Assembly (NCBI GenBank): GCA_958296135.2
Contig: CATQHZ020000001.1
Location: forward strand, 4,608,001-4,672,000
Direction: 5' to 3'
DNA length: 64,000 nucleotides
DNA from: an uncultured Poribacteria bacterium
GTDB lineage: Bacteria > Poribacteria > WGA-4E > WGA-3G
How positions within the stretch are numbered: position 1 is the first letter of the stretch; each line of letters starts with the position of its first letter. The notes below the pieces were generated by a model. It worked only from the letters and a program-made list of their open reading frames with translations. It searched no databases and was not told the DNA's origin. This document shows positions 7,608 to 32,320 of this stretch, one piece after another. Position numbers and translations under genes: made by a program.

Positions 7608-8223
7608 AGCAAAATTGAGACCGCGGCTTGAGACAGCCCTCGCCGTTGTCGCAAACAAAATGGTTGCAATCGGCATCACGGCGAATATGGTGACGCTCTT
7701 CGGGTTCGTGGTGAACCTTATCGCAACCTTTTTCTTCGCAAAGGGATATCTTGTAACAGGGGGGATTCTCATGCTGCTCGGCGGAAGCTTTGATACGCTC
7801 GATGGAGCAGTCGCTCGGGCCCAGAACCGCCTCCGGCCATCAGGCGCGCTCCTCGATTCTGTCATCGACCGGTATTCGGAAGGCTTCCTCTTCCTCGGCG
7901 CGCTTATTTACTTCTACGGGTTAGAAAGCCTACTAGGGATAATCCTCGCGTTTGGCGCATGGTTCGGTTCAATTCTAGTGAGTTATGTGAGGGCCAGAGC
8001 CGAGGGACTCCAGATAACCTGCAAGGTGGGGTTCATGCAACGCCCAGAACGCATCATCCTTTTCGGGGCCGGCACGCTCCTGCAAGGCGTGCTTTGGCAT
8101 AAATTTCCCCCCCTCCAAGCGAATGGCATGATTCTGCTTTGCACGCTTGGCATCCTGACGCTCGCGTCGCATATCACCGCCATCCACCGGTTGATTTTTT
8201 CATTCCAAGAATTGGGCCGTTAG
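7600..8223 (+). CDS. CDP-alcohol phosphatidyltransferase (PI/PIP synthase-like)
   Basis: Family motif DTLDGAVARAQ..SGALLDSVIDRYSE, plus SYVRARAEG and RPER. Confidence 0.9.
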   Translation: MFEAKLRPRLETALAVVANKMVAIGITANMVTLFGFVVNLIATFFFAKGYLVTGGILMLLGGSFDTLDGAVARAQNRLRPSGALLDSVIDRYSEGFLFLGALIYFYGLESLLGIILAFGAWFGSILVSYVRARAEGLQITCKVGFMQRPERIILFGAGTLLQGVLWHKFPPLQANGMILLCTLGILTLASHITAIHRLIFSFQELGR

Positions 8224-8358
8224 CCGTAACGCAGCCCCGTAGCGCGAGGGCCCGGCAATCGCGAATCGCCGAGGGTTCCCCTCGCGAACTCTTAACCGAA
8301 ACGCATGGGCATGGCGAGGGACAGCCCTCGCCCTACAAGTGATGAACAGCATACGGAA

Positions 8359-9231
8359 TTAGCCAAGCCCGAGGAGCGACACGATATCCAAACCAAAAGG
8401 CTTCAGGATGAGGTTTGCTGAGTAGGCAAGCACGGTAGCGACAAGCACCCCTTTAATCCACCCTTCGCCCTTTGCGACTGCCCAGTGGCTGCCAATCCAC
8501 GCGCCGGTGGCGTTACCGATAGCTAAGGTTATCCCTAACACCCACACAATCTGGCCTTTGCTGATAAAGATGCCGAGCGCGATAATCGTATAGGCGAAGA
8601 TAATAAACACCTTGAGCGAACTGGTAATCACCAGGTCATCGCCATCAATAATCCGCAAAGCCGCGATAATCAGCAAACCCGTGCCAGCCTGAATGAACCC
8701 ACCGTAGATGCCGATAAAAAAGAGAACAATGCCCGTGATGATTTTGTGGTGCGTGTCGCCAGGGTTGATTTTATCGTGCAGCCACTCCGTCGGATTGAAT
8801 AGCGTTAAAAGCAGCATGCTCACGAGGACAACGGCGAGAATCGGCTCAAATACTTTATCACCCGTTCTTGTCGCGAGAAAGGCACCGATCGCCGCCCCTG
8901 CAACCGCCGGGATTGCGAGGGCAATGGCATAACGGAAATTTGAAACCCCCTTGTTCCGGAACCCAAGAATAGCACTGAGGTTTTGAAAAAGGATTGCCAC
9001 CCTATTCGTGCCGTTCGCGTACGGTGTCACATTCTTATTCTCGGCAGCACTACCTGCCGCCGGGAGCGTATCGGCGAGAGCCGGGAGATCTAACAAAAAA
9101 ATCAGCATTGGCAGTGTCAACAGAGAACCGCCGCACGCAAGCGTATTCAGGAAGCCCGCTAACACGCCTGTCCCGAGAAGCAGGGCGAGGTATAAAATAT
9201 GGCTCTGAATGAACTCAAGCAATTCAAACAT
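8359..9231 (-). CDS. TauE/SafE sulfite exporter family membrane protein
   Basis: AGFLNTLACGGSLLTLP, ANGTNRVAI and GIYGGFIQAGTG motifs; multiple TM helices. Confidence 0.85.
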   Translation of the reverse strand: MFELLEFIQSHILYLALLLGTGVLAGFLNTLACGGSLLTLPMLIFLLDLPALADTLPAAGSAAENKNVTPYANGTNRVAILFQNLSAILGFRNKGVSNFRYAIALAIPAVAGAAIGAFLATRTGDKVFEPILAVVLVSMLLLTLFNPTEWLHDKINPGDTHHKIITGIVLFFIGIYGGFIQAGTGLLIIAALRIIDGDDLVITSSLKVFIIFAYTIIALGIFISKGQIVWVLGITLAIGNATGAWIGSHWAVAKGEGWIKGVLVATVLAYSANLILKPFGLDIVSLLGLG

Positions 9232-9544
9232 TTGTGTTTTTTCCCTTTCGTGACCCGCGGCGGGAAGCCGAACGCGAGACAGCGCGGTTTGAACGCCGCT
9301 GTGTCGTCTTCGCGAGTCCCATTAAGAAAACGGCGACAAGATTGCCGAACACAACCGCGCATCCGAGCCCTGTGAGCAACAAAAACCCGCCGATGCGAAG
9401 CAAGCCATCGCCAAACGGACAGGCCCACCTCGCACTGAAAATAGCGAACGCGGGAATGAGCACTCCAAGCATAAATCCCACAACCGCAGCGATACCGGCG
9501 ATGTTCTGATATTTTTTCAACGCCGGTAATTGGACTTCAAACAT
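9224..9544 (-). CDS. Small two-TM hypothetical membrane protein
   Basis: RBS gaaagga, two hydrophobic helices, overlaps the start of the downstream tauE-like gene. Confidence 0.65.
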   Translation of the reverse strand: MFEVQLPALKKYQNIAGIAAVVGFMLGVLIPAFAIFSARWACPFGDGLLRIGGFLLLTGLGCAVVFGNLVAVFLMGLAKTTQRRSNRAVSRSASRRGSRKGKNTNV

Positions 9545-9671
9545 TTCGTATCCTTTCTACATCCTTTTCGATTTTGACATGGCGAGGGACAGGCCCTCGC
9601 CCTACGATAACCAACCCTTACTCCCGTAGCGCGAGGGCCCGTCCCTCACAAACTCGCAACGGAAAAGGGCG

Positions 9672-10694
9672 TTAGTAATAGCCGAGGTATCTATCCCTAC
9701 CCTGCACCAGTGCCTCTATTTTCCTATCAACAACCGAACGTTTGAGCATCCAAAAACCGCAGTCCGGATGCACCCAACCAACCCGTCCGGGGCCCAATAC
9801 CTTTTCCGCTTTCTCGATGCTTACCGCCACCGCGTCCGGCGTTTCAACGGGGTTGACTTTTACGTCAATCACACCGATACCGAGGACAATATCCGCCGAG
9901 ACCGCTTTGAGTGCCTCCAAATCTGCCGCCGGCCGATGCTTCAACTCTAACACGAGATGATCGCACCGGAGCAGGTTCAAGAAATCGATCAGCGCGCTCC
10001 AAGTCCCTTTTTGGATAACCTGCCCGCCGTAGTTACCGAAGCAGAAATGCACCGCCTTCTGTCCGGGAAACGCGTCAAGGACGATGTTAATCGCAGCAGC
10101 GGCAAGGGGGCCATCGTGTGGATTGCCCGGTATATTCGCCTCATCAATTTGGAGGCAGGCGCATTCAAGTTCCTGCACTTGCGCCGCCAAGACTTCCGCC
10201 AAAGCGGTGAGCAACGCCTCAAAATCGCCGTAATGCTTATCCAACAAGGTGCGTGCAAGCATATAGGGACTCGTCACGGTGAACTTGATATCCTCGCCAG
10301 CGACGTTCGTCATCCGTTGACAATCCGTGACAAGGTTTAGCGTGCCCTCGCCGAGGGACGCGTGAACAACCCCCGCGGGCTTCGCGCGAAATGCCATCGT
10401 CTGCAGCTGCCGAAATTCGTGCCACTCCTGTCGGCCCACTTGTGCCCGAATGCCCTCTAACGGCCGAATAAAATAGTCTATCATCCCGTTCGTATCAGGG
10501 TGATTGACATCAAAGCGGTAGAGTTCGCCATCCGTGGGCATATCGATGCCGTGTTGCCGTTGAATATCGACGACAACGCGCGTCGCATCGATGAGTGCCT
10601 CTTCAGTCGGCATCGCCGAAAGCCACTGTGGAATCGGGTAAGAACCGACGGTTGTGGTTAAAATGTCGGGTTTTTTCTCTGTTGAATGTTTCAT
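9672..10694 (-). CDS. Cobalamin-independent methionine synthase II (MetE C-terminal-like) family protein
   Basis: TTTVGSYP, TDGE, LQIDE, Zn ligands HFC and PDCG, LGIGVIDVK. Confidence 0.85.
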   Translation of the reverse strand: MKHSTEKKPDILTTTVGSYPIPQWLSAMPTEEALIDATRVVVDIQRQHGIDMPTDGELYRFDVNHPDTNGMIDYFIRPLEGIRAQVGRQEWHEFRQLQTMAFRAKPAGVVHASLGEGTLNLVTDCQRMTNVAGEDIKFTVTSPYMLARTLLDKHYGDFEALLTALAEVLAAQVQELECACLQIDEANIPGNPHDGPLAAAAINIVLDAFPGQKAVHFCFGNYGGQVIQKGTWSALIDFLNLLRCDHLVLELKHRPAADLEALKAVSADIVLGIGVIDVKVNPVETPDAVAVSIEKAEKVLGPGRVGWVHPDCGFWMLKRSVVDRKIEALVQGRDRYLGYY

Positions 10695-15396: not shown

Positions 15397-17010
15397 TTAC
15401 TTCCTGACAAGCATCTTGCCCGTCGCCGAGAAATCACCCGCGGTGAGCGTGTAGAAATACACGCCGCTGGCGACGCGCTCGCCGAGGTCGTTCCGGCCAT
15501 CCCAATACGCGGCCTGGCTCTTGCTCTGATAGACACCAGCCGCCTGATGTCCTAACGCCAGAGTGCGAACCAAGGTGCCATTCACAGCGTAGATGGACAC
15601 CGTGACATCCGTGGCTTTCGCCAACTGATACGGAATCCACGTTTCGGGGTTGAACGGATTCGGATAGTTCAGCAGCAACTGCGTCTCTTCCGGCACCATT
15701 GCCTGCAACAGCCGTTCAAGATTCGCGATGCCGAGGTCGAAAATGGCTGCCCCGTCGTCCTCAACCTGCGCCAGGTCGATCCACGACTGAATCGTTTCAG
15801 GCGTGAAGTCTGTCTGTTCTCTAACGCTTGCGGACAGCGGCGCGGTTCCTACCTGATCGTTCGCCCCCCTAACCTCAACGGGTGCCACTGCCTTTCCCCA
15901 GTTTGGATGTCGGGAGATCAAGATGAGATCCAGCGTATTGACAATCCCATCGTTATTGACGTCAGCGCGCGGATCCGCGGGAACTTCACCAAGTTCTGCG
16001 GCTATCACGACCAGATCCATAACATCCACCAGTCCATCCCGATTGACATCCTCTCGGGGATACTGGTGTGTCGCAACCACCGGGTTGCTGATAATATGGT
16101 AGGATATCCGGTTATGTTTTGGTCGGCTTGAAGCCTGGTCGAAAACCAGTTCAGGCACTGTCAGCCGGCCGGCATTACTGATATGAGCGGAATTACTGAG
16201 TTGCACATTATGCAGCCCCAATGCTTCCTCCGCAAATTGCTTGATCTTGAAATCGATCTGCAGCAATTCGCCAGAGCCATTGACACCGTCCACGGGATCG
16301 GTGAGGACAGTAGCACCATCGGCATCCACAGTCCTGCCAACACGCGCTTGCCAGATACCGGAGATTTTGCCTGCACTCATGGTACCGGACTGAAACGCGG
16401 CATCTACGTCACCGAGTGCCAGAAAATCACCTTCTCTGACTTCAACGGCCTCTAGCACCACCGGATTGTAGGCAATATCCATCTGCCAGCCGGCTAAATC
16501 TGTCACATATTTGATCCCGATCGAGTATGTGAAGGTATCGCCGACAGCGAGAGGGAGGTCCTCAACCTTCGGAGTCGCAACAATGCGGGTTATTTCCACC
16601 TCTTCGCCCACCTGAAAAGCATGGACGTAGAGAGCATCAAGTGTCGTTGCATCTGCTTCGATTCCAATGCGTCCTGCCACATGGAAAGTCACATTGGTGT
16701 GTATTTTCCCAAAACGATCGGTGACTCCGCTTTTTGGATCGACTGATGCAACCGTAGGATCCGGCTGTATGACGCGATTGTTACTGTCCACAAAACCGAG
16801 AACCCGAAATGTGACAGTTTCGCCCGCCTGCACAGCACCGTCGCGTCTGAGGGTAATGGTGAGCGGCGTTGTATCACCTACCTGATACTTTTTTTGAACC
16901 CGTTCAACCTCAGTTTCCGCTTCAAACGTAATTTGCGCAGCGGCGTTCCCCGTAAGCATCAAGACAAACCCGATGCATACAAGCGTCAGTAAAATTGAAA
17001 ACGTTTTCAT
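15397..17010 (-). CDS. Secreted Big-1 + cohesin + dockerin + FlgD/CTD protein
   Basis: Signal peptide; cohesin-like VGDTFT..DLAGWQMDIAYNPVVLEAVEVREGDFL; dockerin EDVNRDGLVDVMDL/ADVNNDGIVNTLDL; CTD NYPNPFNPETWIPYQL. Confidence 0.85.
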   Translation of the reverse strand: MKTFSILLTLVCIGFVLMLTGNAAAQITFEAETEVERVQKKYQVGDTTPLTITLRRDGAVQAGETVTFRVLGFVDSNNRVIQPDPTVASVDPKSGVTDRFGKIHTNVTFHVAGRIGIEADATTLDALYVHAFQVGEEVEITRIVATPKVEDLPLAVGDTFTYSIGIKYVTDLAGWQMDIAYNPVVLEAVEVREGDFLALGDVDAAFQSGTMSAGKISGIWQARVGRTVDADGATVLTDPVDGVNGSGELLQIDFKIKQFAEEALGLHNVQLSNSAHISNAGRLTVPELVFDQASSRPKHNRISYHIISNPVVATHQYPREDVNRDGLVDVMDLVVIAAELGEVPADPRADVNNDGIVNTLDLILISRHPNWGKAVAPVEVRGANDQVGTAPLSASVREQTDFTPETIQSWIDLAQVEDDGAAIFDLGIANLERLLQAMVPEETQLLLNYPNPFNPETWIPYQLAKATDVTVSIYAVNGTLVRTLALGHQAAGVYQSKSQAAYWDGRNDLGERVASGVYFYTLTAGDFSATGKMLVRK

Positions 17011-21457: not shown

Positions 21458-22078
21458 TTAACCCTTGACATACTTCCAACCGTCAACCAGAACGGGGAGC
21501 CCGCGGATCAGGCACATCGCAACGGCGACGGAAGAGATAATCACGCCTGCTAATTCTAAACCAACGACGAATTCAGGGTAGGCACCGAAATTTTTGAACG
21601 TCATCACGCCGCCGAGGTAGAGAAAGGCGAGCGTCTTGGCGATACCATAGATGCTGCGGCTTGCGCGTGAGCTCGTGAGAGCGCGTGTCCAAGGAGAGGC
21701 CATCATCGTCTTCTCGCCGAACGCGGTCTTGCCTTCCGCAAAGGCGGCACTCCGCAAGCCATCTGTGAAAAACCCGCGCGCAATCACGATGGCGGGAATC
21801 CAGAACGGAATCAGCCCAACGACAGCGAAGTAAACCCAGAAGATACATTCGACAATCCGGTCGCCGACGATGTCAAACAGCGCACCGAAATCCGATGTCT
21901 GATTCAGTTTTCGGGCAACGTAACCGTCCACCGCATCAAGGAACAAAATCACTCCTATCATCGCGACAAGCAGAACGTCTAAATAGACATGCTGCCCGAA
22001 GAGCGAAATCACGACGAAGACCAAAGCTAGGCGGAAAAGCGTAATCAAATTCGCAACCATGGGGGAGTCCTCCGACAT
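21458..22078 (-). CDS. CDP-alcohol phosphatidyltransferase
   Basis: ANLITLFR and DAVDGYVARKLNQTSDFGALFDIVGDR. Start may be 22060. Confidence 0.9.
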   Translation of the reverse strand: MSEDSPMVANLITLFRLALVFVVISLFGQHVYLDVLLVAMIGVILFLDAVDGYVARKLNQTSDFGALFDIVGDRIVECIFWVYFAVVGLIPFWIPAIVIARGFFTDGLRSAAFAEGKTAFGEKTMMASPWTRALTSSRASRSIYGIAKTLAFLYLGGVMTFKNFGAYPEFVVGLELAGVIISSVAVAMCLIRGLPVLVDGWKYVKG

Positions 22079-22221
22079 TTTTCTATTTTTTTAACGTCTT
22101 CTTGTAACATGACTTACACAAACTCCTGAAACGCCTACGGGGTTTGTTCCGCGTAAGTCCTATATAAGATATAATAACGTAAATTGTCACCTAAATCAAG
22201 GTGAATAGGAGCGAATTGCCA

Positions 22222-23820
22222 ATGAACGAAAACAAAAAACCGAACATCGTCCTGATTCTCAACGACGATATGGGCTTCTCCGACCTTGGCTGCTACGGCG
22301 GCGAAGTCCATACCCCGAACCTTGACCGGCTCGCCGCGGGCGGGCTACGATGGACGCAGTTTTACAATACCGCGCGGTGCTGCCCCTCCCGTGCTTCAAT
22401 GCTCACCGGGCTCCACCCACACCAAACCGGAGTCGGCCACATGACGAGCGACGACGGATTAGAGGGATACCGCGGAGACCTGAACAACCGGTGCATTACC
22501 ATCGCAGACGCTGTCCGCCCTGAAGGATACGGCACGTATATGAGCGGTAAATGGCATATCTCGCGGCATACCGGCCCCGAAGGACCGAAACATAGCTGGC
22601 CCTGCCAGCGCGGGTTCGACCGGTACTACGGCATCATCACGGGGGCCGCCAATTTTTGGAAACCGAATACCTTGACGCGGGATAACACGCGCATCCAACA
22701 CGATGAACTTCCCGAAGGGTATTTCCTCACCGATGCCATCAGCGACGAAGCGTCAGCGTTCATTCGGAATCACACCGAAAAGTCGGCGGAGAGCCCCTTC
22801 TTCACTTATGTCGCCTACACGGCACCCCACTGGCCCCTGCACGCACATGAAGAGGACATCGCACGATATAACGGACGCTTTGCCGCGGGCTGGGACAAAC
22901 TCCGCGAAGAACGGCTCTCACGGATGCGGGAGATGAAAATCTTGGACGAGGCATGGCGGCTCACTGCACGCGACCCGTCGCAACCGCCATGGAGCGATGC
23001 GCAGTATAAAGAGTGGAATCAACGCCGCATGGAGGTTTACGCCGCACAAATCACGCGGATGGATACCGGCATCGGGCGAATTATTGATACGCTCGAAGAG
23101 ACAGGACAACTGGACAACACGCTCATCCTGTTTTTAGCCGACAACGGCGGTTGCGCAGAAGAACTCGGCAGACCGCCCGCAAGACGCGAGGGCGGTTCGC
23201 TCATCAGCACGGAGACGACTTCGGATGGCAGACCTGTCTATCGCGGCAACGACCCGAGCATTATGCCGGGGCCGGAAACCACCTATCAGAGTTATGGCGT
23301 GCCGTGGGCGAATCTGTCCAATACGCCGTTCCGTGAATACAAGCACTGGGTGCATGAAGGCGGTATCGCTACACCGCTCATCGCGCACTGGCCGGAGAGG
23401 ATTAAAGCCGCAGGCGAACTCCGCCATCAGCCGGGGCAACTGCCCGATATTATGGCGACATGCCTTGACGTTTCCGGGGCAACTTATCCAGATGAACACA
23501 ACGGGAACCCGATTTTGCCGTTAGAAGGCACCAGTCTAACCCCGATTTTCGACGGAAAAAACAACGGAAAAGAGGTGCTGTATTGGGAGCATGAGGGCAA
23601 CTGCGCCGTGCGCCAAGGCAAATGGAAACTCGTCTGCAAATTCCCTGGAGACTGGGAACTCTACGATGTGGAAGCAGAGCGGACCGAGATGAACAACCTC
23701 GCCGACAAGCATCCGCAGAAGTTGAAAGAGCTCATCGGGCTTTATCAGAACTGGGCTGACAGGTGCTTTATCTACCCGTGGGACCGGCTCCAAGCGCAGC
23801 GCAGACAGCAGCGCGCGTAA
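22222..23820 (+). CDS. Arylsulfatase (Cys-type)
   Basis: PNIVLILNDDMG, CCPSRASMLTG, GKWH, APHWPLH, DNG, K..HEGGI. Confidence 0.93.
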   Translation: MNENKKPNIVLILNDDMGFSDLGCYGGEVHTPNLDRLAAGGLRWTQFYNTARCCPSRASMLTGLHPHQTGVGHMTSDDGLEGYRGDLNNRCITIADAVRPEGYGTYMSGKWHISRHTGPEGPKHSWPCQRGFDRYYGIITGAANFWKPNTLTRDNTRIQHDELPEGYFLTDAISDEASAFIRNHTEKSAESPFFTYVAYTAPHWPLHAHEEDIARYNGRFAAGWDKLREERLSRMREMKILDEAWRLTARDPSQPPWSDAQYKEWNQRRMEVYAAQITRMDTGIGRIIDTLEETGQLDNTLILFLADNGGCAEELGRPPARREGGSLISTETTSDGRPVYRGNDPSIMPGPETTYQSYGVPWANLSNTPFREYKHWVHEGGIATPLIAHWPERIKAAGELRHQPGQLPDIMATCLDVSGATYPDEHNGNPILPLEGTSLTPIFDGKNNGKEVLYWEHEGNCAVRQGKWKLVCKFPGDWELYDVEAERTEMNNLADKHPQKLKELIGLYQNWADRCFIYPWDRLQAQRRQQRA

Positions 23821-23987
23821 GAGTGGATGTTTCTATCCGCCTGCATCTAGGACTTCCAAGATGAGAGGCTCGGTGCAGGGAGCAATAACCTAGGAACGTA
23901 GGGCGGGGGCCTGGCCCCCGCGAACTTCGTGACATAGCGAGGGACAACGGAAACGCGGGACAACTCCTGAAAATCCGCAATTAAAAT

Positions 23988-24016
23988 TTGCAAAAAGCGC
24001 AGAAATGTGATATAAT
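23988..24016 (+). promoter_or_regulatory. sigma70 promoter upstream of the cobalamin riboswitch
   Basis: TTGCAA-N17-TATAAT with TG extension. Confidence 0.75.
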
Positions 24017-24041
24017 ATCTCCACAACAACTGAATAAGCAA

Positions 24042-24334
24042 ACGATTCAGGTGCCGATGTAGGGTGAAACTTGCAAACCCTGCGACATCGGAGAATAGGG
24101 AAGCGCGGTGAGAATCCGCCACGGCCCCGCCACTGTGAACGATACTCCTCTGTGAGCAAGCCATACGGTTCGGAGGAGAGTTTTTCACTTCAAAAACCAC
24201 TGTCGTCAGATGGGAAGGTGAAGTGGGAATTTTTGTTCGGTGCAGCAGAGACCCGTTTTTCTTGGCAACTCACAAGAAAACGTCGTTTCCTGCAACAAGA
24301 AAGCATCGGAAGTCAGGAGACCTGCCTGAATCGT
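24042..24334 (+). promoter_or_regulatory. Cobalamin (AdoCbl-type) riboswitch
   Basis: P1 acgattcagg/cctgaatcgt; conserved AGGGAA, GGTG..AATCC, CCCCGCCACTGT and CCACTG..GGGAAGG; B12 box AGTCAGGAGACCTGCC. Confidence 0.92.
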
Positions 24335-24441
24335 GTTTCATACAGCTGCTTTCGCGGGAGAGCAGTGGAACAACAGCGCGCACGAGAGGCACTCCGACTT
24401 TCACGATTTTGGAAAACCTACCTCCGTATGAACGTTGCCAC

Positions 24442-24480
24442 ATCCCCTGTCTTCCCACGGAAAGCAGGGATTTTTTGTTT
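24442..24480 (+). terminator. Intrinsic terminator, probably the riboswitch expression platform
   Basis: atcccctgt..ttcc-cac-ggaa..gcagggat stem followed by a T-tract, just before the RBS and ATG 24496. Confidence 0.7.
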
Positions 24481-24495
24481 CATTACGGAGGAATC

Positions 24496-25725
24496 ATGCA
24501 ATTTTTGAAAAAGTGGGTAGCGCGGGCTATCCTCTTCACCCTTCTCATGAGCCCGGCTTTTGGCCAGACAGACGTGCAGCATCTCGCTGTCGTCGTCAAT
24601 GCGCTTACTCATCCCGACTTGGGCATTTCAACTTCACTTTCACTCATCGACCTCGCGGAACCTAACGAGAAACGCGCGGTTGAGAACCAAGTCATCCCGC
24701 TCGGCAACGTGCCGAGCGATATCCTCATTCGCGGGCATCTCGCTTACATATCCAACGTCTTTAGCAGCAACATCTTGATTATCAACCTGCAGCGGCGCAC
24801 GATTGTCGGAGAAATCCCAATCCGCACCGGTGCCCAACCACAAAGCCTCGCCTTTGTCGATGAGAACAAGATGTATGTCACCTGCGACGCAGCGCACGAG
24901 GTGCATGTCGTCGACATCCCAAATCGCAATGTGACGAAGGTCATCACCGGGCCCTTCAACAAACCCACCGGCATCACGCTGCTGAACGGCAAGGCTTATG
25001 TGACGAACGCGGCATGGGAGTGGGACGCAATTGAAGGCAAAGTACATTACCACGACAGCAGCGTCACGGTGATTGATACCACGACAGACACGGTATTGAA
25101 ATCTATCCCGATGCCGACAAACGCCGGCGGGATTGTCAACGATGGCGAGTCAACAGTGCTCGTCAAGACAACGGGCGACCTGAATCTCATCGCCGGTAAC
25201 CTCGTGTTTATTGATACGACTACCGATGAGGTTCGCAAGACGGTGCCGCTGAAAATGTCACCGGGTAGTTTCGCCATCAATGCGGAAAAGCAGCTGTTCA
25301 TCCAAGGTGGATGGCAAACCCCCGGTCTCCTTATCTATGATGTCGTCGCAGAAAAATGGGTCCGAGATAAAGATGACGCGCTCGTCGATTTCGGCGGCGG
25401 TTCGGGCATGACGTTCGCACCGGACGGCAGCCTCTATATCACCTATCCCGATTGGACCGGCGGTGGGCAAGACGAGGTGCGCGCCATGGGCACCGACGAA
25501 ACGCTCCTCAAAACGTATCGCCCCGGCCCCGGGGCGGATAACGTAGCCATCGCACAGATTGTCCCCAGACCTGAGGATATCAACGACGATGGGTTTGTGA
25601 ACGTCGAAGACCTGGGCATCGTCAGTCGCTACCTAGGCGAAAGCGGCGTAGATTTGCGCGGCGATATCAACGCCGATGGCGTGGTAAACGTGCTTGACCT
25701 GGTTATTATCGCAAGCCAACTCTAA
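24496..25725 (+). CDS. Secreted YncE/YVTN beta-propeller with C-terminal dockerin (candidate BtuG-like corrinoid-binding protein)
   Basis: RBS ggagg; YISN/YVT/YVTN blades; dockerin EDINDDGFVNVEDL..GDINADGVVNVLDL; first gene under the B12 riboswitch. Confidence 0.8.
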   Translation: MQFLKKWVARAILFTLLMSPAFGQTDVQHLAVVVNALTHPDLGISTSLSLIDLAEPNEKRAVENQVIPLGNVPSDILIRGHLAYISNVFSSNILIINLQRRTIVGEIPIRTGAQPQSLAFVDENKMYVTCDAAHEVHVVDIPNRNVTKVITGPFNKPTGITLLNGKAYVTNAAWEWDAIEGKVHYHDSSVTVIDTTTDTVLKSIPMPTNAGGIVNDGESTVLVKTTGDLNLIAGNLVFIDTTTDEVRKTVPLKMSPGSFAINAEKQLFIQGGWQTPGLLIYDVVAEKWVRDKDDALVDFGGGSGMTFAPDGSLYITYPDWTGGGQDEVRAMGTDETLLKTYRPGPGADNVAIAQIVPRPEDINDDGFVNVEDLGIVSRYLGESGVDLRGDINADGVVNVLDLVIIASQL

Positions 25726-25793
25726 CGGACGCAAGTTTCATCATCCTCGGTAGGTGCGGTTACAAACCGCACCTACCAGTAAGGGAACACGCA

Positions 25794-27851
25794 ATGCGAA
25801 AATCGATAGTCTGGCTCTATAAATACACCCTTAAAGGGGTTTTAAAGGGATGGTATCTTTTCCTATTTCCGCTGTTGCTTATCAGTTGCGGCCCGAGGGA
25901 AACGAAAGATGCATCGCTAGCGTGGCAGGTGACTTTCTTCTCCCTCGGTGCAGAGCTCCAATTTAGCCGAGGCACCCCCCGCGAAGCAGAGACACAGAAG
26001 CAGTCACCCTCCCAAGTCAAAGCTTACCGAACGCTTGGCGACAAGACGAAAACGCTAGTTGCGCAGCTCGATTTTCCCACGGCACCGCGCCCGGTAGAAT
26101 CGCTCTACTTTGAATGGCACGAAGGCGAAACCTACCAAATTGAGGTGACATCGCAAACAGGGCAGGTCAGCTTCCAACAAGTGACTGCCCCGCGTTCTAC
26201 CGCACGCGGCAGTTTGGAAATATCGGTCCCGTACGGTGCGGCTGCGCACGCGAACGCCCCTTCACTCGTGCTGCACGACAGCGAACTGACTGCTACAGTC
26301 CTGGTCAGAAATGGGACAGCTGCACCGCCATCAAGCAACCGGCGGAGGCCTGTCCCCCGCCATCAAGCCGATTTTCACGTTGAAGTTTGTCTCCCTTCTA
26401 CACTGACTGTCGTGAAATGGCCAGAAGGTTGGACAGCAAAACATACCGGTGAAGAAACCTGTCTGACAACGTCCGGCACATTTACCGTCGCTGGCGAAGT
26501 CTGGTATCGGGAAGTGGTGCTGAAAATGCCGCGCCTACTTGATACTGGCACCGCTGTTATTTCGGGCAAGGTTCGCTTTGAAGCGAGTGGCGAATATAGA
26601 AATTTCGTCTTACAGAATCGCGAGGATACGACCTGGGAACACATAACCGAATTGCAACTGCAGGCGGCGACAGTGGAGGAGATAGCGGCCCAGCTCGCCA
26701 TTGAAGATGTCCAGATGCCTACCGATGATGCCGGCACCGCCGACCCGAGGCAGCGCGCCGATACCCTCTATCACGCGCAGCCACTCCTCGGCCGGTGGGG
26801 ACAGTCCCCGATTGATGTCTACACGCCGATAGCACACCAAACGGTGCATCTCCGCAATCACAGCGAGTCAACTCTCCATGTCGTCGTCTCCTCTATTAAC
26901 CGCGACGCGAAAAGTGGAAAGGTGATTCAGTTTCTCGCGCCGCCCGAGGCAGTCAATGCCGGGACAGATATGAGCGTATCCTTCGCGAGCCTGCCGCCAG
27001 GGACATTAAGTGCTATTCCGCTGCCGATTTACTTCAATCCGCTTTCGGCGAGAGCCGGCGAATACACGCGCGAGATTGAGGTGAAAGTTTGGGGCAGTAA
27101 CGCCACGGTGCTGCGTGAACAACGGCCGCTCCACATCGTCGTGCCGAATCGACAGGCATTGTTCATCACGGTGCTAGCCGTGCTTGCCAGCAGCATCGGG
27201 TTAGCGGGCGTGCTTCGGCATCACCGCCAAATCTTTGCACGGTTCACGACGAAACAACTGATTGTCATCGCGTTGTTCGGCGCGACCGTTTTTGTCTGCG
27301 TCATCATCCCATCAACGCTGTTTTTGAACCTCATCCGCGCTCTCCTCGGCCCCGTCTCAGTGCTGTTGACTGGGCTGATGAATGAAACGCTCTACTATGC
27401 GTTGCTGACAGCGTTGCTCATTTATATTAACGGCTCACCGCAAAAGGCAGAACAAGAAGAATGCGCGGTTGAAAACCGAGCCTACGGAAAAACGGAGAAA
27501 AAACCGGGCGTGATTCTCCTGGCCTCCGCCGTGCGCCTGTTGCTCGGTGCAGTCACCTTCGGGCTTTTCACGCCGATGGAAATTATCTATACCGGCACAA
27601 GCGTGCTGTTACTTGAAACGGGGTATCGGCTCGTGCAACGGCGCGGTTTATTGGCATGGGCAGTGGCACTCGGCATCTGCGATGCGCTTGCTGTCTATGT
27701 CGATTTTCAACTGTCCATTGTCTTCTACCGGCTCTTCTACGCAGATTGGTATATCGCAATGCGCATCCTAGTTGAAGGGTTCGCCTATACCTTTATCGGC
27801 GTGCTACTTGGCAGCCGATTGGGACGCGGACTCTGGCGCGTCGCTGACTAA
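25794..27851 (+). CDS. Large extracytoplasmic domain fused to a C-terminal ECF S-component-like membrane module
   Basis: Lipobox-like LISC; C-terminal FTTKQLIVIALFGA...KPGV...G..LGSRLG multi-TM pattern resembles MptD-type S units. Confidence 0.6.
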   Translation: MRKSIVWLYKYTLKGVLKGWYLFLFPLLLISCGPRETKDASLAWQVTFFSLGAELQFSRGTPREAETQKQSPSQVKAYRTLGDKTKTLVAQLDFPTAPRPVESLYFEWHEGETYQIEVTSQTGQVSFQQVTAPRSTARGSLEISVPYGAAAHANAPSLVLHDSELTATVLVRNGTAAPPSSNRRRPVPRHQADFHVEVCLPSTLTVVKWPEGWTAKHTGEETCLTTSGTFTVAGEVWYREVVLKMPRLLDTGTAVISGKVRFEASGEYRNFVLQNREDTTWEHITELQLQAATVEEIAAQLAIEDVQMPTDDAGTADPRQRADTLYHAQPLLGRWGQSPIDVYTPIAHQTVHLRNHSESTLHVVVSSINRDAKSGKVIQFLAPPEAVNAGTDMSVSFASLPPGTLSAIPLPIYFNPLSARAGEYTREIEVKVWGSNATVLREQRPLHIVVPNRQALFITVLAVLASSIGLAGVLRHHRQIFARFTTKQLIVIALFGATVFVCVIIPSTLFLNLIRALLGPVSVLLTGLMNETLYYALLTALLIYINGSPQKAEQEECAVENRAYGKTEKKPGVILLASAVRLLLGAVTFGLFTPMEIIYTGTSVLLLETGYRLVQRRGLLAWAVALGICDALAVYVDFQLSIVFYRLFYADWYIAMRILVEGFAYTFIGVLLGSRLGRGLWRVAD

Positions 27852-27891
27852 CTTGACTCTACAGAAATAGGAAAAGAGAGGAACTCTCAAA

Positions 27892-29571
27892 ATGAAGAAA
27901 AATCAACTTCTGGCACTACTTTGTCTACTCATCGCCTTCCCTATTCACGCGTTCGCAGCGGACATGAACGTTGTCTGGACGCGCACGGGTGCCGTGCTTG
28001 AAACGGAACAGCACGTTAAAGGCACGCTCAAAATCGAAGTGTTATCAGAAACGGAAACACTTCTTCCTGCCAAGGTCTCACGGCTAAACCCTCAACAGAT
28101 GCTGATGCGATGCGCGTGGGAACCGAACCAGAACTATCACGTGACGCTCACCTCTGATGCAGACGTGCTCGTTTCAGAATCCCGAACGCCGCTCAAACCA
28201 GTGCTGTATCCCATCCGGACGATTGCGTTGGATGGAGTGTTATCGCTCATGGAAAACCTGCGCCGCCCGGCAAAGCCGACAACGGTAGCGTTTTCAATGA
28301 ATGGAGAAAATGTCGCCATCGCAACGGATACAGGGCACCTCGCGATTGTTGAGACACTGACTGGCGAAACAGTCTGGAAAACCCGCATTTCAGAGGGATA
28401 TGTCAAACACGTCGCCTTCAGTCGCGACGGAAAGTACCTCTATATTAGTGAACAAGCAGCTGATGGATACATCTACAGTTATGACATCAGCGCGCTTGGA
28501 AAGCGTGCCGCCCGGCAGTTGTGGAAATATCGCACCGCTGACGACATTGAGTCTTCTACGCCGCAAGACCCGGGCAGTGTTTATGCGTGGGTGCAATATC
28601 CGGGCCCGTCTCGCATGCTGACGCTGCCAGATGGCGACGTGCTTGTCGCAAGCGTGCATTCGTGGACCAGGGACGATGCGCCGCATCAGAAATCCCAACT
28701 CTACCGATTTGATGAAGAGACAGGCACCGTCAAATGGAAATGGCCCACCGATGGCGCGCTATCGAAAGTTTTGCGATGGTTTGATGTCAGTGCCGATGGA
28801 AAAACGCTGGCACTTTTAACAGATAAAAGTGGGAAAGGAAACGGACAACTTGTCGTCATCAATGTGGAAACGGGCATGGAACGATGGCACGCCACCTTTG
28901 AACCGCTCAAACCCTACTTTGAGGGAGTCACCTTTTGGCGCGGTGTCAGCATCTCACCCAATGGCAAGTTTATTAATGTGACAACCGACGATGGGCGCGC
29001 CTTTATTTTTAAAAGCGCGACTACCGGAAAACAGCGAGAACAGGAACCACTCTGGCATCAAAATTTGACGACTCCCCTAGAAGTGAGCGGTGTCCCGATT
29101 ATCGCCACTTCCGGCACCATCGGCGCGACGAATGCTGCCGCGCTCTTTGTCACCGGCGATACTTATATCCCGTATCATCTCCAAAAAGGCGCGCAACGTC
29201 CGACTACAGCGCATCCAAACGGGATGACATTGTTTGCTTATTCATGGGACGGTGAAAAGGTATGGCAATGGCAATTGGAGAATATGCCGCAAGGCTTACG
29301 AATTGACACCCCCGGTCGCTATGCAGTCCTCGCCGTTTCCAAACGGAGTCAAAACCCGAATGAAAGCCTACACGGCGTTTCCCTCTTCGATCTGGAGGCC
29401 GAAGGAAGCGGTTTGGCGAAATACCTCTACACCTACCGCACGGAAGGGCAGCTGCCTTACGATACGCTTGCCATCAGCGCAGCTGGCACCTTCATCGCCG
29501 TGGTGGAAGTGCCGCTCGTGCTGCCAGATGAGACAGTGCGCGGCAAAAATCGGGTGCATATTCTGTATTAG
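27892..29571 (+). CDS. Secreted PQQ-like/WD40 beta-propeller protein
   Basis: Signal peptide; repeated AFSxDG, TGETVWK, TGTVKWKW and ISPNG motifs. Confidence 0.78.
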   Translation: MKKNQLLALLCLLIAFPIHAFAADMNVVWTRTGAVLETEQHVKGTLKIEVLSETETLLPAKVSRLNPQQMLMRCAWEPNQNYHVTLTSDADVLVSESRTPLKPVLYPIRTIALDGVLSLMENLRRPAKPTTVAFSMNGENVAIATDTGHLAIVETLTGETVWKTRISEGYVKHVAFSRDGKYLYISEQAADGYIYSYDISALGKRAARQLWKYRTADDIESSTPQDPGSVYAWVQYPGPSRMLTLPDGDVLVASVHSWTRDDAPHQKSQLYRFDEETGTVKWKWPTDGALSKVLRWFDVSADGKTLALLTDKSGKGNGQLVVINVETGMERWHATFEPLKPYFEGVTFWRGVSISPNGKFINVTTDDGRAFIFKSATTGKQREQEPLWHQNLTTPLEVSGVPIIATSGTIGATNAAALFVTGDTYIPYHLQKGAQRPTTAHPNGMTLFAYSWDGEKVWQWQLENMPQGLRIDTPGRYAVLAVSKRSQNPNESLHGVSLFDLEAEGSGLAKYLYTYRTEGQLPYDTLAISAAGTFIAVVEVPLVLPDETVRGKNRVHILY

Positions 29572-29581
29572 CAGAAATAAG

Positions 29582-29610
29582 TTGACATTTTTCCATAAAA
29601 ATGGTAAAAT
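29582..29610 (+). promoter_or_regulatory. sigma70 promoter
   Basis: TTGACA-N17-TAAAAT upstream of 29648. Confidence 0.75.
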
Positions 29611-29647: not shown

Positions 29648-30418
29648 ATGAAACAAACTTTTTGTGTCATGTTAACGTTGCTACTGGCCGTCGGCTGCGT
29701 CAATAGTGTTTTCGCACAAACGTTGATGAGCGACGAATTTGATGGCACCGGCCAGGCACTCAAATCCTTTTGGCAAGTCAAGGACGGAGAGAAGAGTCCT
29801 TGGGAGCTGAAAGATGGACTGCTCCTCGCGGAAGCGGGGTTTGACCAGAATCTGTGGGGCGATGATACCACCACGCGCTTCTATCAAATCACCGACCAGG
29901 ACGAGTTTGACATTGAAACGTCGATGGTTGTCGATTACGCAGATGCCTGCACCGTCGCCGGCATCGTCGTCTACTCCGCCGCAACGAAGGATACCCAAGA
30001 CCGCGATGGCGAATGGGTAACGCTGAAGTTGTGGGGACGCGGGGCAGCGCAGAACAACAACGCCGTGCTCCAGTATCAACGCCGTCAAAACGATGCCGCG
30101 CCTTATGTCGGAACGCAACCCGACTACAATCCAGAACAGGGCGTTATCCCCATCGAACTCCGCATCAAACGCGAAGGCGACGAATATGAATCCTGGTTCA
30201 AGCCAGATGCCCAAGGCGACTGGGTTTCTGTCAGCAAAGTTACCAACGAACTTCAAGAACCCCTTGAAGTCGGCATTTATGTCGGTATCTGCGAAGGCGA
30301 AGGCCCCGGCAACATGACAGTCACGTTTGACTATTTCCGTGAGGCTTCTAGCCCCGCGACACCCGTAGACCCGCGCGATAGACTTGCTATCACGTGGGGT
30401 GAACTGAAACGCCAGTAA
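29648..30418 (+). CDS. Secreted ConA-like/DUF1349-like protein with C-terminal WG.LK motif
   Basis: Signal peptide, paralog motifs, ends PVDPRDRLAITWGELKRQ. Confidence 0.8.
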   Translation: MKQTFCVMLTLLLAVGCVNSVFAQTLMSDEFDGTGQALKSFWQVKDGEKSPWELKDGLLLAEAGFDQNLWGDDTTTRFYQITDQDEFDIETSMVVDYADACTVAGIVVYSAATKDTQDRDGEWVTLKLWGRGAAQNNNAVLQYQRRQNDAAPYVGTQPDYNPEQGVIPIELRIKREGDEYESWFKPDAQGDWVSVSKVTNELQEPLEVGIYVGICEGEGPGNMTVTFDYFREASSPATPVDPRDRLAITWGELKRQ

Positions 30419-30555: not shown

Positions 30556-31350
30556 ATGAAACAGATAACTATTTTAGTGCTTATCGGCATCGCGATGATT
30601 TTCGGCACCTTCGCCGCCGAAGCCGCTGATTCCCTCGGTGACCCGTTTGATGGCAACGCTTTAAAAAACCCGAATTGGCAATGGAAAACCTCCAGAGAGG
30701 AAGGCGTTGAACCGAAAGAGTGGGACCTCGGCAAAACGAAAGCCGGCTGGCTGCACATCACCGGCGAACGCGACCGAAACCTCTGGCCCGATGATACGAC
30801 AAACCGGCTCTATCAGGAACACGAAGGCGATTTTGACATCGAAACGCACCTCTACATGGACTACGAAGAAGCCTGCGTCGTAGCGGGAGTCGTCGCTTTC
30901 TCGCCTACCACGAAGGACCATCAGGGACGAGAGGGCGAATGGGTGACGATAAAACTCTGGGGACGCGGACCGGCAAACGATAACAACGCTGTCATTCAAT
31001 ACCAAAAACGGCAGTTTGATGGCGGTGAAGGCCTCGTCGGCGTAGTCCCCGGCTTCCAAGACCCGGCCGGCGAAATGGAACTTTACATGCGCCTCCGCCG
31101 AGAAGGCGATAACTTCACAGCATGGTGGAAACGGAAAGCGAACGATAACTGGACCGACATTGGCGAAACCGAACAAGAATTCGATGAACCGATCGAAGTC
31201 GGCATTTATGTCGGTATCTGTGACAACAAAGGCACACAGATCGCCCAGTTCGAGTATTTTGAAGACCTGCTCGTCCCGTTTGATGTCTCGCCGCGTGCAA
31301 AACTGCCGGTTGCTTGGGGAGACCTCAAACGTCGGCACAGCGCACCCTGA
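30556..31350 (+). CDS. Secreted ConA-like/DUF1349-like protein with C-terminal WG.LK motif
   Basis: Tandem paralog of the previous gene; ends DVSPRAKLPVAWGDLKRRHSAP. Confidence 0.8.
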   Translation: MKQITILVLIGIAMIFGTFAAEAADSLGDPFDGNALKNPNWQWKTSREEGVEPKEWDLGKTKAGWLHITGERDRNLWPDDTTNRLYQEHEGDFDIETHLYMDYEEACVVAGVVAFSPTTKDHQGREGEWVTIKLWGRGPANDNNAVIQYQKRQFDGGEGLVGVVPGFQDPAGEMELYMRLRREGDNFTAWWKRKANDNWTDIGETEQEFDEPIEVGIYVGICDNKGTQIAQFEYFEDLLVPFDVSPRAKLPVAWGDLKRRHSAP

Positions 31351-31438: not shown

Positions 31439-32320
31439 ATGCAGCAACCAAGCTGGCCATCTACACCACAGATTATACACGGCGACTGCTTAAACAAGTT
31501 GCCAGAACTTGAAGAGGCATCCATCCATCTTGTCGTGACAGACCCGCCCTATTTTCTCGATGGCCTCGATGCCGACTGGAAGAAAGGACAAAAGGGTGCG
31601 AAACGCGCCACAGGCGTTATCGGTGGGTTGCCAGTCGGAATGAAATTCGATCCGAAGCAGGGGATTGCCTTACAGGCCTTTATGACAGAAGTGAGCCGCT
31701 TGATGCTCCGGGTGCTGAAGCCGGGCGCGTTCGCAGTCGTGTTTAGCCAGCCGAGGCTGGCTCATCGGATGGCGATAGGACTTGAGGACGCGGGGTTTGA
31801 AATTCGCGATCTTTACGCATGGCACTTCACTCGTCTCGCACAATTCAAGGCGTTCTCTATGGATCATTTCGTCAATCGGATGGACAAAACGGATACGGAA
31901 AAGGAGGCTTTGAAGGCACAACTGCAAGGACGAAAAACGCCGCAGCTGCGCCCGCAATTCGAGGCGATGATCCTCGCACAGAAACCCCGAATCGGAACGT
32001 TTGTTGAGAATTGGCGAATCCATGAAACGAGTCTAATTGACGCGGGTGCCACCCTAGACGGTTCTGCGCCAAGCACCGTGATGACGGTAGAAAAGCCGCG
32101 ACGCAGCCATTTCAATGGGCACCTGACGGTGAAACCCGTTGTGCTCGTTGAACACCTCATCCGTCTTTTTTCTGTTCCTGGCCAGATTGTGCTTGACCCC
32201 TTCCTCGGAAGCGGGACAACGGCGGTGGCCGCAATGCGATTGGGTAGAGCCTGCATCGGGATTGAAATAAACAGTGAGTCTATTAGCATCGCAAATCGGC
32301 GCGTCGCAGCTGATGAATAA
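31439..32320 (+). CDS. Beta-class N4/N6 site-specific DNA methyltransferase
   Basis: TDPPY comes before HLTVKP and VLDPFLGSGTT. Confidence 0.92.
   Translation: MQQPSWPSTPQIIHGDCLNKLPELEEASIHLVVTDPPYFLDGLDADWKKGQKGAKRATGVIGGLPVGMKFDPKQGIALQAFMTEVSRLMLRVLKPGAFAVVFSQPRLAHRMAIGLEDAGFEIRDLYAWHFTRLAQFKAFSMDHFVNRMDKTDTEKEALKAQLQGRKTPQLRPQFEAMILAQKPRIGTFVENWRIHETSLIDAGATLDGSAPSTVMTVEKPRRSHFNGHLTVKPVVLVEHLIRLFSVPGQIVLDPFLGSGTTAVAAMRLGRACIGIEINSESISIANRRVAADE

Follow-up and report, generated by a model that had tools for sequence, protein, structure and literature searches.

A cobalamin riboswitch operon of Poribacteria that probably encodes a corrinoid importer with an ECF S component joined to a receptor-like ectodomain

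The DNA analyzed here is a 64-kb window (64,000 nucleotides; positions 4,608,001 to 4,672,000, forward strand, of contig CATQHZ020000001.1, assembly GCA_958296135.2) from a genome of an uncultured Poribacteria bacterium assembled to 94.7% completeness. It contains three genes, g1, g2, and g3, that lie on one strand downstream of a cobalamin riboswitch, with intergenic gaps of 68 and 40 bases, and that probably form a B12-repressed operon for the uptake of corrinoids, specifically of complete cobamides. g1 (24496-25725, +) encodes a secreted YncE/YVTN-type β-propeller that is BtuG-like and has a C-terminal type I dockerin, g2 (25794-27851, +) encodes a 685-aa protein in which a large extracytoplasmic domain is joined to a membrane module, and g3 (27892-29571, +) encodes a secreted PQQ_2/BamB-like β-propeller with a small N-terminal β domain. 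An earlier note on this DNA had described the same succession of riboswitch, propeller with dockerin, ectodomain with transmembrane (TM) module, and secreted propeller; its description stands, except that the riboswitch lies upstream of position 24496, where the note had its unit begin. The note had also stated that the unit contains no BtuB, BtuCDF, or energy-coupling factor (ECF) EcfT or EcfA gene, and indeed neither Pfam and NCBIfam searches nor the list of open reading frames (ORFs) gave a TonB-dependent receptor, BtuF/C/D, EcfT, or EcfA gene within g1-g2-g3.

The riboswitch (24032-24343, +) is a full-length RF00174 aptamer. It scored 81.9 bits in Rfam, for which the gathering score is 31.5, with E 1.3e-18 and all 189 model positions covered, and its 3′ core (AGUCAGGAGACCUGCC) matches the consensus at high posterior probability in the Rfam alignment. 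It is the sole RNA family matched in the window, and no second RF00174 match was found in the genome, for which 150 of 316 candidates were scored. Conservation was assessed in homologous loci, taken as the best 80 of 292 loci from genomes and the best 80 of 305 from metagenomes. Among 80 species-level poribacterial loci, the order g1-g2-g3 is kept wherever the contig permits, while the flanking genes vary. RF00174 was upstream of g1 in all 12 poribacterial loci searched with Rfam, and nhmmer placed the riboswitch upstream in 77 of 80; the three misses (L019, L025, L053) are contigs that end short of the upstream region. The riboswitch-g1-g2-g3 arrangement is not due to chance. The aptamer itself carries three long peripheral insertions (24060-24085, 24155-24200, and 24236-24306), which bring it to 312 nt vs 189 model positions, and its score is below those of most relatives (86.6-113.4 bits). 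The idea that the insertions are mobile repeats was rejected, each inserted stretch being unique in the genome.

The structure of g2, which has no Pfam or NCBIfam match, was modeled with AlphaFold2 from a 60-sequence alignment. The whole-protein model (mean predicted local distance difference test, pLDDT, 88.6; predicted TM-score, pTM, 0.81) has β-sandwiches at ~40-450 and helices at 453-684. Residues 1-32 (25794-25889, +) read in translation and alignment consensus as a lipoprotein-type signal peptide with an LLIS-C lipobox; the lipobox Cys is kept as 'GC' in the family consensus, and g2 would be lipidated there. Residues 33-450 (25890-27143, +) are predicted by AlphaFold2 and Foldseek to form an extracytoplasmic array of Ig-like β-sandwiches, and residues 451-685 (27144-27851, +) are predicted by a TM-only AlphaFold2 model, VIA-align, and Foldseek to comprise one extra TM helix followed by a six-helix ECF S-component module. 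Foldseek matches to whole g2 were generic Ig-like arrays only (integrin leg, alpha-2-macroglobulin, pilin), and the TM part was folded alone because these matches hid the TM domain. Neither BtuH nor other known B12-binding domains were among the 50 ectodomain Foldseek matches listed, a result that does not exclude them.

The TM-only model (residues 450-685; pLDDT 92.1) was compared with 48,161 representative PDB chains using VIA-align. ECF S components fill ranks 1-14, with Z from 12.4 to 8.1, a range in which helical bundles (Z < ~13) may merely share a common arrangement, and independent evidence was therefore sought in gene neighborhoods. The best match was YkoE (5edl; Z 12.4, root mean square deviation 3.2, 167 residues aligned); others were RibU (Z 11.8), 4hzu_S (11.1), NikM (10.4), CbiM (9.3), and BtuM (8ovv; 8.7), and ThiT, BioY, PanT, and FolT were also within the S-component top ranks. 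The first unrelated chain had Z 7.4. Foldseek likewise gave 5edl as the top match of the TM-only model (E 0.021). These results support the prediction, made from the sequence in the earlier note, that the membrane module of g2 folds as an S component, with the six helices of that fold. S components have a cytoplasmic N-terminus, so that an extra helix is required to join it to an ectodomain on the outside; in g2, helix 453-475 precedes the six-helix core.

Searches of g2 against the PDB sequences, either as a single protein or as a 60-sequence profile, gave chance-level matches only, and among the 60 relatives one weakly matches PF09819 and one PF09605 (both E 0.0019). Protein-atlas clusters for S components and PF09819 gave scores of 0.75-0.76, which are under the counting level and were kept as a lead only. 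When short S components standing alone and related to the g2 TM part were sought, only family fragments and unnamed archaeal proteins came up. The family core spans approximately residues 280-685, that is, the membrane-proximal ectodomain (~280-450) and the TM part, and most family matches cover it. The family alignment has invariant residues E608, R646, and W652 and a conserved motif, LYRLFYADWYI. The family comprises 353 representatives at 50% clustering, and every member seen is annotated as 'hypothetical protein'. Named members come from Phascolarctobacterium succinatutens and Acidaminococcaceae of the human gut; Methanosarcina mazei and Candidatus Methanoperedens have related proteins that are shorter. 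Within the module, residues ~546-569 (window ~27429-27500) are a variable cytoplasmic or loop segment of low confidence (pLDDT 62-68). Many database matches break there into two parts, 1-545 and 570-685, even though the reading frames run on uninterrupted.

The earlier note had supposed that the S unit relies on an energizing module encoded elsewhere, and had proposed to look for ecfT and ecfA in the genome. The genome does hold exactly one CbiQ/EcfT gene, preceded by a 529-aa fused double ABC ATPase (EcfAA′). This module (C1:2,052,766-2,055,264) is 2.6 Mb from g2 and is an orphan: no S-component gene adjoins it, its neighbors being a B12-binding radical SAM protein and RsmB. S components of the PF12822, BioY, PF09819, and CbiM types were not found in this genome or in five relatives. 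A metagenome scan seeded with distant g2 members gave 80 loci that were grouped into 30 clusters at 60% identity or more; fused EcfAA′ and/or EcfT stands beside the g2 homolog in 23 of these, and the poribacterial g1-g2-g3 form occurs in three. The remaining four have neither form; two are too short to judge, and the other two (L091 and L093-L095) have flanking sequence with no ECF, g1, or g3 gene and may represent a different sub-type or substrate. The neighboring ATPases match EcfAA′ of this genome at E 1e-69 to 1e-123 for full-length copies, and the neighboring EcfT proteins match its EcfT at E 1e-24 to 1e-62, the weakest copies being cut by contig ends. Within the phylum, g2 is present in 55 of 61 sampled genomes, the same 55 have a strong EcfT ortholog (E ≤ 1e-69), always at a distant site, and the six genomes without g2 have no EcfT match or just weak ones (E 1e-8 to 1e-10); because related genomes are not independent, these counts overstate the support and speak for consistency rather than statistical proof. 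Linkage of g2 to an EcfT/EcfA module is thus seen in synteny, in the orphan module, and in co-occurrence, and the co-occurrence together with the S-component fold supports g2 as the S component of the otherwise orphan module.

The same data bear on whether g2 might act as a solitary transporter, with the distant EcfAA′T module serving something else. Proteins of the BtuM type need no ECF module in Gram-negative bacteria, the BtuM structure matches the g2 membrane module, and the g1-g2-g3 operon has no EcfT or EcfA gene of its own. Such a solitary role for g2 seems decidedly unlikely given the adjacency of EcfAA′/EcfT and g2 homologs in most metagenome clusters, the joint presence or joint absence of g2 and the EcfT ortholog in the sampled genomes, and the failure to find another S component that could use the module.

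Some features of individual ECF loci deserve mention in their own right. The gene directly upstream of the orphan module in this genome encodes a B12-binding radical SAM protein with a DUF4070 domain (C1:2055710-2057728; L089 9711-11729, −); a B12-dependent enzyme thus adjoins the motor of the presumed B12 importer. In L091, the g2 homolog is beside a YkoF-like thiamine-binding protein, a single ABC ATPase, an ORF of 235 aa and unknown function, and a VWA protein. In L131, one 818-aa ORF (7969-10425, +) matches both the ATPase and EcfT, so that the energizing module is apparently a single polypeptide; the riboswitch-led operon of this locus begins with a TonB-dependent receptor.

g3 is a 559-aa protein whose PQQ_2 match scores 37.8 bits vs a cut-off of 27.6, its WD40-like matches being under the cut-off. 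A g3-like propeller stands beside the g2 homolog in 17 of the 30 metagenome clusters. Because such propellers travel with g2 homologs across phyla, we examined binding of g3 to the g2 ectodomain by complex prediction. The pair of g2 residues 33-450 and g3 residues 24-559 scored 0.86 (median of three runs), compared with 0.00 for the best of three controls; of 157 solved complexes, 116 attained the mark used for this score, as did 2 of 215 mismatched pairs, counts that are only approximate here because we supplied our own alignments. At least 69% of the contacts were common to the runs, and the pLDDT of the partner was at least 85. The predicted interface involves g2 residues 85-107, 146-190, and 231-240 plus some membrane-proximal ones, and g3 residues 98-104 and 394-518. 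The prediction supports binding of g3 to the g2 ectodomain. To our knowledge, ECF transporters are the textbook case of ABC importers without an extracytoplasmic binding protein; the modeled ectodomain with its g3 partner suggests a departure from this rule.

g1 is a 409-aa protein with a Sec signal peptide and no lipobox Cys. Its Dockerin_1 match (PF00404; residues 360-408) scores 29.3 bits vs a cut-off of 22.9, as expected of a type I dockerin, and the repeats DINDDGFVN and DINADGVVN are seen in the translation. The Pfam and NCBIfam matches of the propeller to YncE, YVTN, and DUF5074 are all under the cut-offs (DUF5074, 22.7 vs 27.2 bits). In a PDB sequence search, its best single-stretch matches were the BtuG1 entries 8ptd, 8ptf, and 8blw_B (E ~1e-10, residues 67-290). 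With a 20-sequence g1 profile, a single collinear stretch matched each of the three BtuG proteins, BtuG1 at 1.1e-10 (positions 79-333 of the profile), BtuG3 at 1.4e-6, and BtuG2 at ~4e-6, in line with the analogy to Bacteroides BtuG drawn in the earlier note. The sources describe 8ptd as BtuG1 with cyanocobalamin, 8ptf as BtuG1 with cobinamide, and 8blw as the BtuB1-BtuG1 complex (PMC10404256; 10.1101/2024.02.16.580637). BtuG is reported to bind B12 with femtomolar affinity (Wexler 2018, PMC6143338) or with low-picomolar affinity, and to bind cobinamide as well as cobalamin (10.1101/2024.02.16.580637). It is a lipoprotein with a Bacteroidetes export signal that acts as a lid on BtuB, and its homologs are reported to be exclusive to Bacteroidetes (PMC6143338).

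The likeness of g1 to BtuG1/2/3 of Bacteroides (8PTD, 8PTF, 8BLW, 3DSM, 8BMX, 8OKV) lies in the sequence matches and in a probable YncE-type propeller encoded behind a B12 riboswitch. Unlike BtuG, g1 has a dockerin, its N-terminus (MQFLKKWVARAILFTLLMSPAFGQ...) contains no Cys, so that it lacks the lipoprotein character of the BtuG family, and its unit contains no TonB-dependent receptor that could take the place of BtuB as its partner. By sequence, then, g1 is BtuG-like, short of established BtuG identity. The genome has 12 Plug-domain genes, all outside the unit and the nearest ~44 kb downstream. The g1 propeller is single-copy in the genome, and 15 cohesin matches in the genome are possible docking sites for the g1 dockerin. 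A 537-aa ORF elsewhere in the window (15397-17010, −) has a cohesin match (genome C1:4624192-4624548, ~window 16192-16548) and a dockerin-like stretch (~15907-16059) and could be a scaffold element able to receive the g1 dockerin. The dockerin and the likeness to BtuG are what point to capture of corrinoids by g1 at the outer surface, which we propose by analogy.

Dockerins, Ig-like arrays, and propellers are also typical of adhesive and scaffold proteins, and Poribacteria are rich in cohesin and dockerin proteins. It is conceivable on these grounds that the operon encodes no transporter at all, and instead a B12-regulated surface or periplasmic complex for adhesion, for storage or sequestration of corrinoids, or for signaling to the sponge host. 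We give this very little credence: g2 has the predicted S-component fold, its homologs in other phyla stand in fixed linkage with genes for an ABC ATPase and a T component, and no second inner-membrane route for B12 was found in this B12-dependent genome.

That the organism depends on B12 is suggested by its gene content, by which it uses B12 but cannot make it. The genome encodes three proteins with B12-binding domains, including a 1256-aa MetH-like frame, and a PduO-type adenosyltransferase. It has only two TP_methylase genes, and CobS and CbiB were not found in it; nor were CbiN and CbiM, a Peripla_BP_2 protein, or, by tblastn, CbiD, CbiK, CobN, CbiZ, ChlID, and BtuF. Of the 61 sampled genomes from the phylum, a single one has CbiD, and it lacks g2. 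For a B12-dependent organism that can neither assemble nor finish the corrin ring, importing cobalt, cobinamide, or lower ligands under B12 control is of no use; what it needs is complete cobamides. The g1-g2-g3 operon is both the only riboswitch-marked candidate and the only inner-membrane B12 route found in the genome.

In other lineages, the module has varied company. Its neighbors in metagenome loci include CbiZ, CbiK, CbiD, two corrin methylases, CobN with ChlI/ChlD-like proteins, TonB, TonB-dependent receptors, and a BtuF-like protein. RF00174 was found in 10 of 41 metagenome loci scanned. Four of these ten are among the six scanned loci of g1-g2-g3 type, and the other two of that type lack upstream sequence. 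Elsewhere, the riboswitch stands directly before the g2 homolog in L125 and L127; in L131 and L116 it is upstream on the same strand, heading a longer row of genes that includes the module; and in L105 it is on the same strand ~2.1 kb before the g2 homolog, across an unannotated gap. Riboswitch linkage of homologous operons, which the earlier note had made a test of its proposal, accordingly holds throughout the poribacterial loci that include the upstream region, and outside Poribacteria it is recurrent but partial. In L097, L107, and L113, genes for a CobN-type chelatase and ChlI/ChlD-like AAA/VWA proteins lie directly beside g3-g2-EcfAA′T, and L113 also has TonB.

Cobalt transporters are classic targets of B12 riboswitches and are located in cbi operons. 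This precedent, together with the occurrence of the module beside genes for CbiK, CbiD, corrin methylases, and CobN/ChlID chelatase in metagenome loci, invites the alternative that the module imports cobalt or another metal, as a B12-regulated ECF metal transporter replacing CbiMNQO. The g2 membrane module does match NikM and CbiM in structure, and the alignments take in its extra N-terminal helix. However, CbiM and NikM bind the metal with their N-terminus, the end at which the g2 module has a 420-residue ectodomain attached, and a large ectodomain and two propellers would be hard to explain for an ion. CbiN and CbiM were not found in this genome, and CbiD was found neither in it nor in 54 other g2-bearing sampled genomes. 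With two TP_methylases and no CobS, CbiB, CobN, or CbiK, there would be no corrin ring to receive cobalt, and B12-switched cobalt import would be purposeless. We therefore regard metal import as very unlikely. The cbi/CobN neighborhood in other lineages fits corrinoid or cobalt import alike; as far as gene content can tell, it is the metabolic context of the organism's own genome that decides between corrinoid and cobalt for this operon.

The neighborhoods also raise the possibility that the substrate is some other B12-related or tetrapyrrole compound, such as cobinamide, an incomplete corrinoid, a lower-ligand base, or heme, rather than complete cobamides. In some lineages the module neighbors CbiZ, an enzyme of cobinamide salvage, or CobN/ChlI/ChlD-like proteins, TonB, and TonB-dependent receptors, and the chelatase/TonB arrangement resembles the Hmu heme loci of Bacteroidetes. 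The binding of cobinamide by BtuG proteins, as reported in the source cited above (10.1101/2024.02.16.580637), also fits a substrate of this kind. For the present genome it is nevertheless unlikely: without CobS and CbiB, neither cobinamide nor a lower-ligand base could be converted into the cofactor. For heme, a general consideration applies, in that we know of no precedent for a heme importer under a cobalamin riboswitch. The substrate may differ between lineages of the g2 family.

Several points weigh against the proposed role of the operon in uptake of complete cobamides, in addition to the limits on the Z scores and on the co-occurrence counts given above. CbrT, the known ECF B12 S component, ranks just 30th among the structural matches of the g2 membrane module (Z 6.2), and g2 matches no Pfam or NCBIfam S-component model, so that it belongs to no curated family. 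The genome is 94.7% complete, for which reason its missing genes count as not found rather than as proven absences. Placement within cbi/CobN clusters would be expected of a cobalt transporter too. Outside poribacterial-type operons, the riboswitch is present in just 6 of 35 scanned loci, and in L142 it is placed between the module, which precedes it, and CbiD. The g1 profile scores the archaeal S-layer YVTN propeller 1l0q higher than BtuG1 (2.9e-14, in three short stretches), and g1 may therefore be merely a generic member of the propeller superfamily. Lastly, a btuB gene, which the earlier note had suggested seeking elsewhere in the genome, did not emerge: the genome has no BtuB equivalog over the cut-off, the best match scoring 73 bits vs 599.7.

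On balance, B12-repressed uptake of complete cobamides remains the reading we favor, and the mechanism we infer, with respect to substrate, order of hand-over, and regulation, would be as follows. At low B12 the unit would be expressed; when B12 is bound, a terminator-like hairpin and a helix sequestering the Shine-Dalgarno (SD) sequence would shut expression off. g1, held by its dockerin on a cohesin scaffold, would capture the corrinoid further out. At the inner membrane, g3 bound to the g2 ectodomain would serve as an extracytoplasmic receptor that passes the corrinoid to the S module, making g2 the substrate-specific S component of an ECF-type ABC importer. In ECF transporters, the S component topples against EcfT in a process driven by the ATPases; here, the S module would topple against the EcfT encoded 2.6 Mb away, and fused EcfAA′ with EcfT would power transport.

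Comparison with known systems brings out what is shared and what is not. The ECF-CbrT importer of cobalamin and cobinamide from Lactobacillus delbrueckii (6fnp) likewise has an S component, a T component, and two ATPase domains, and its substrate class is the one proposed here. CbrT itself is simple, an S component of ~20 kDa without additions, and the energizing module that it shares is a general (group II) one. Unlike CbrT, g2 has an extra TM helix, a lipid anchor, a 420-residue ectodomain, and a propeller partner of its own, and the ATPase that goes with it is fused into one polypeptide; no sequence similarity between the two was detected, and the structural match is the low-ranking one noted above. 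The nearest structural relative of the g2 membrane module is YkoE, of the group I ECF system YkoE/YkoCD (5edl, PF09819), in which a fused double ATPase also occurs. YkoE has no ectodomain and handles a thiamine precursor; unlike YkoE, g2 is under every Pfam threshold, and PF09819 was not found in the genome. BtuM (8ovv) has the S-component fold in common with g2 (155 residues aligned), the same proposed substrate, and a setting in Gram-negative cells. BtuM has no ectodomain; unlike it, g2 is tied to EcfAA′T by synteny and co-occurrence, and no sequence similarity to it was detected. The canonical Gram-negative route, BtuB-BtuFCD, has the same physiological role as that proposed here and the same riboswitch control, but none of its parts is in the unit. 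What is new in the system as proposed is that an ECF transporter would have both a receptor ectodomain and a partner propeller; the B12 riboswitch is standard, and transport of the ECF kind is known.

A broader interpretation can be offered more tentatively, with somewhat less than even confidence. The family may constitute a new ECF class, a hybrid of ECF and binding-protein-dependent ABC transporters, in which a lipid-anchored Ig-like ectodomain is in fixed complex with a propeller. In Poribacteria this complex would be fed by g1 in a three-step corrinoid relay; in several phyla, including sponge symbionts and gut Phascolarctobacterium, with related genes in Methanosarcina, it would have replaced BtuFCD as the inner-membrane route; and BtuG-type capture would extend beyond Bacteroidetes. 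We found no published description of such a system. The only paper found to join Poribacteria with cobalamin riboswitches was an unrelated genome paper, two papers touching on ECF S components, riboswitches, and CobN were likewise unrelated, and none joined an energy-coupling factor, a propeller, B12, and an S component (subscription journals were outside the coverage). Nothing relevant on B12 auxotrophy of Poribacteria was found, and DUF5074 was in no paper found.

If the proposal is true, the textbook picture of ECF transporters would have to admit an S component that has its own ectodomain and depends on a propeller partner, and structural work would gain a defined complex as its target. 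The way in which Poribacteria, a dominant phylum of sponge symbionts that uses B12 without corrin synthesis or BtuFCD in the genomes searched, acquire B12 would be explained as well, and cross-feeding in the sponge holobiont would become testable. The propionate pathway of Phascolarctobacterium is B12-dependent, and the g2 family may therefore matter in competition for corrinoids in the gut. Naming the family would improve metagenomic predictions of B12 uptake.

The sequence around the operon holds further candidate regulatory elements. Between the aptamer and the g1 start, an expression platform (24420-24491, +) was read from RNAfold output and the sequence. An anti-SD stretch (24420-24432) can pair with 24479-24491, which would cover the SD sequence GGAGG (24487-24491), and a terminator-like hairpin (24445-24469) is followed by U6 (24471-24476). 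Both helices are in the minimum free energy and centroid folds of 24330-24500 (z-score -2.29) and look like a combined terminator and SD-sequestering platform, to which we would ascribe the regulatory role. Directly 5′ of the riboswitch is a TG-extended promoter-like site, TTGCAA-17-TATAAT (23987-24016, +), which matches the consensus at 10 of 12 positions and is a pattern match only. Another, TTGACA-17-TAAAAT with TG (29582-29610, +), follows g3. The earlier note had taken the latter for a new promoter; it is a real consensus match (11 of 12), but it is not evidence of function because the scan found six promoter-like sites compared with 4.2 ± 2.0 in shuffled sequences. The site is, on sequence grounds, likely to mark the boundary of the riboswitch-g1-g2-g3 unit. 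The ORFs downstream of it are not syntenic in relatives, and no terminator-like site was found between 29571 and 29648.

The flanks of the unit contain genes of other kinds. Upstream are a sulfatase gene (22201-23820, +) and a CDP-alcohol phosphatidyltransferase gene (21458-22078, −). Among the 80 loci, a close sulfatase match adjoins the unit only in the closest relative, L009 (92%); in L017 the sulfatase match is weak (29%) and far downstream. Downstream are two ORFs of 256 aa (29648-30418, +) and 264 aa (30556-31350, +) with no Pfam or NCBIfam match. They are apparently paralogs, both matching the same stretch of L066, with 93% and 43% identity, respectively. An N6/N4 DNA methylase gene (31439-32320, +) follows them, and the ORFs are possibly part of a restriction-modification or mobile unit.

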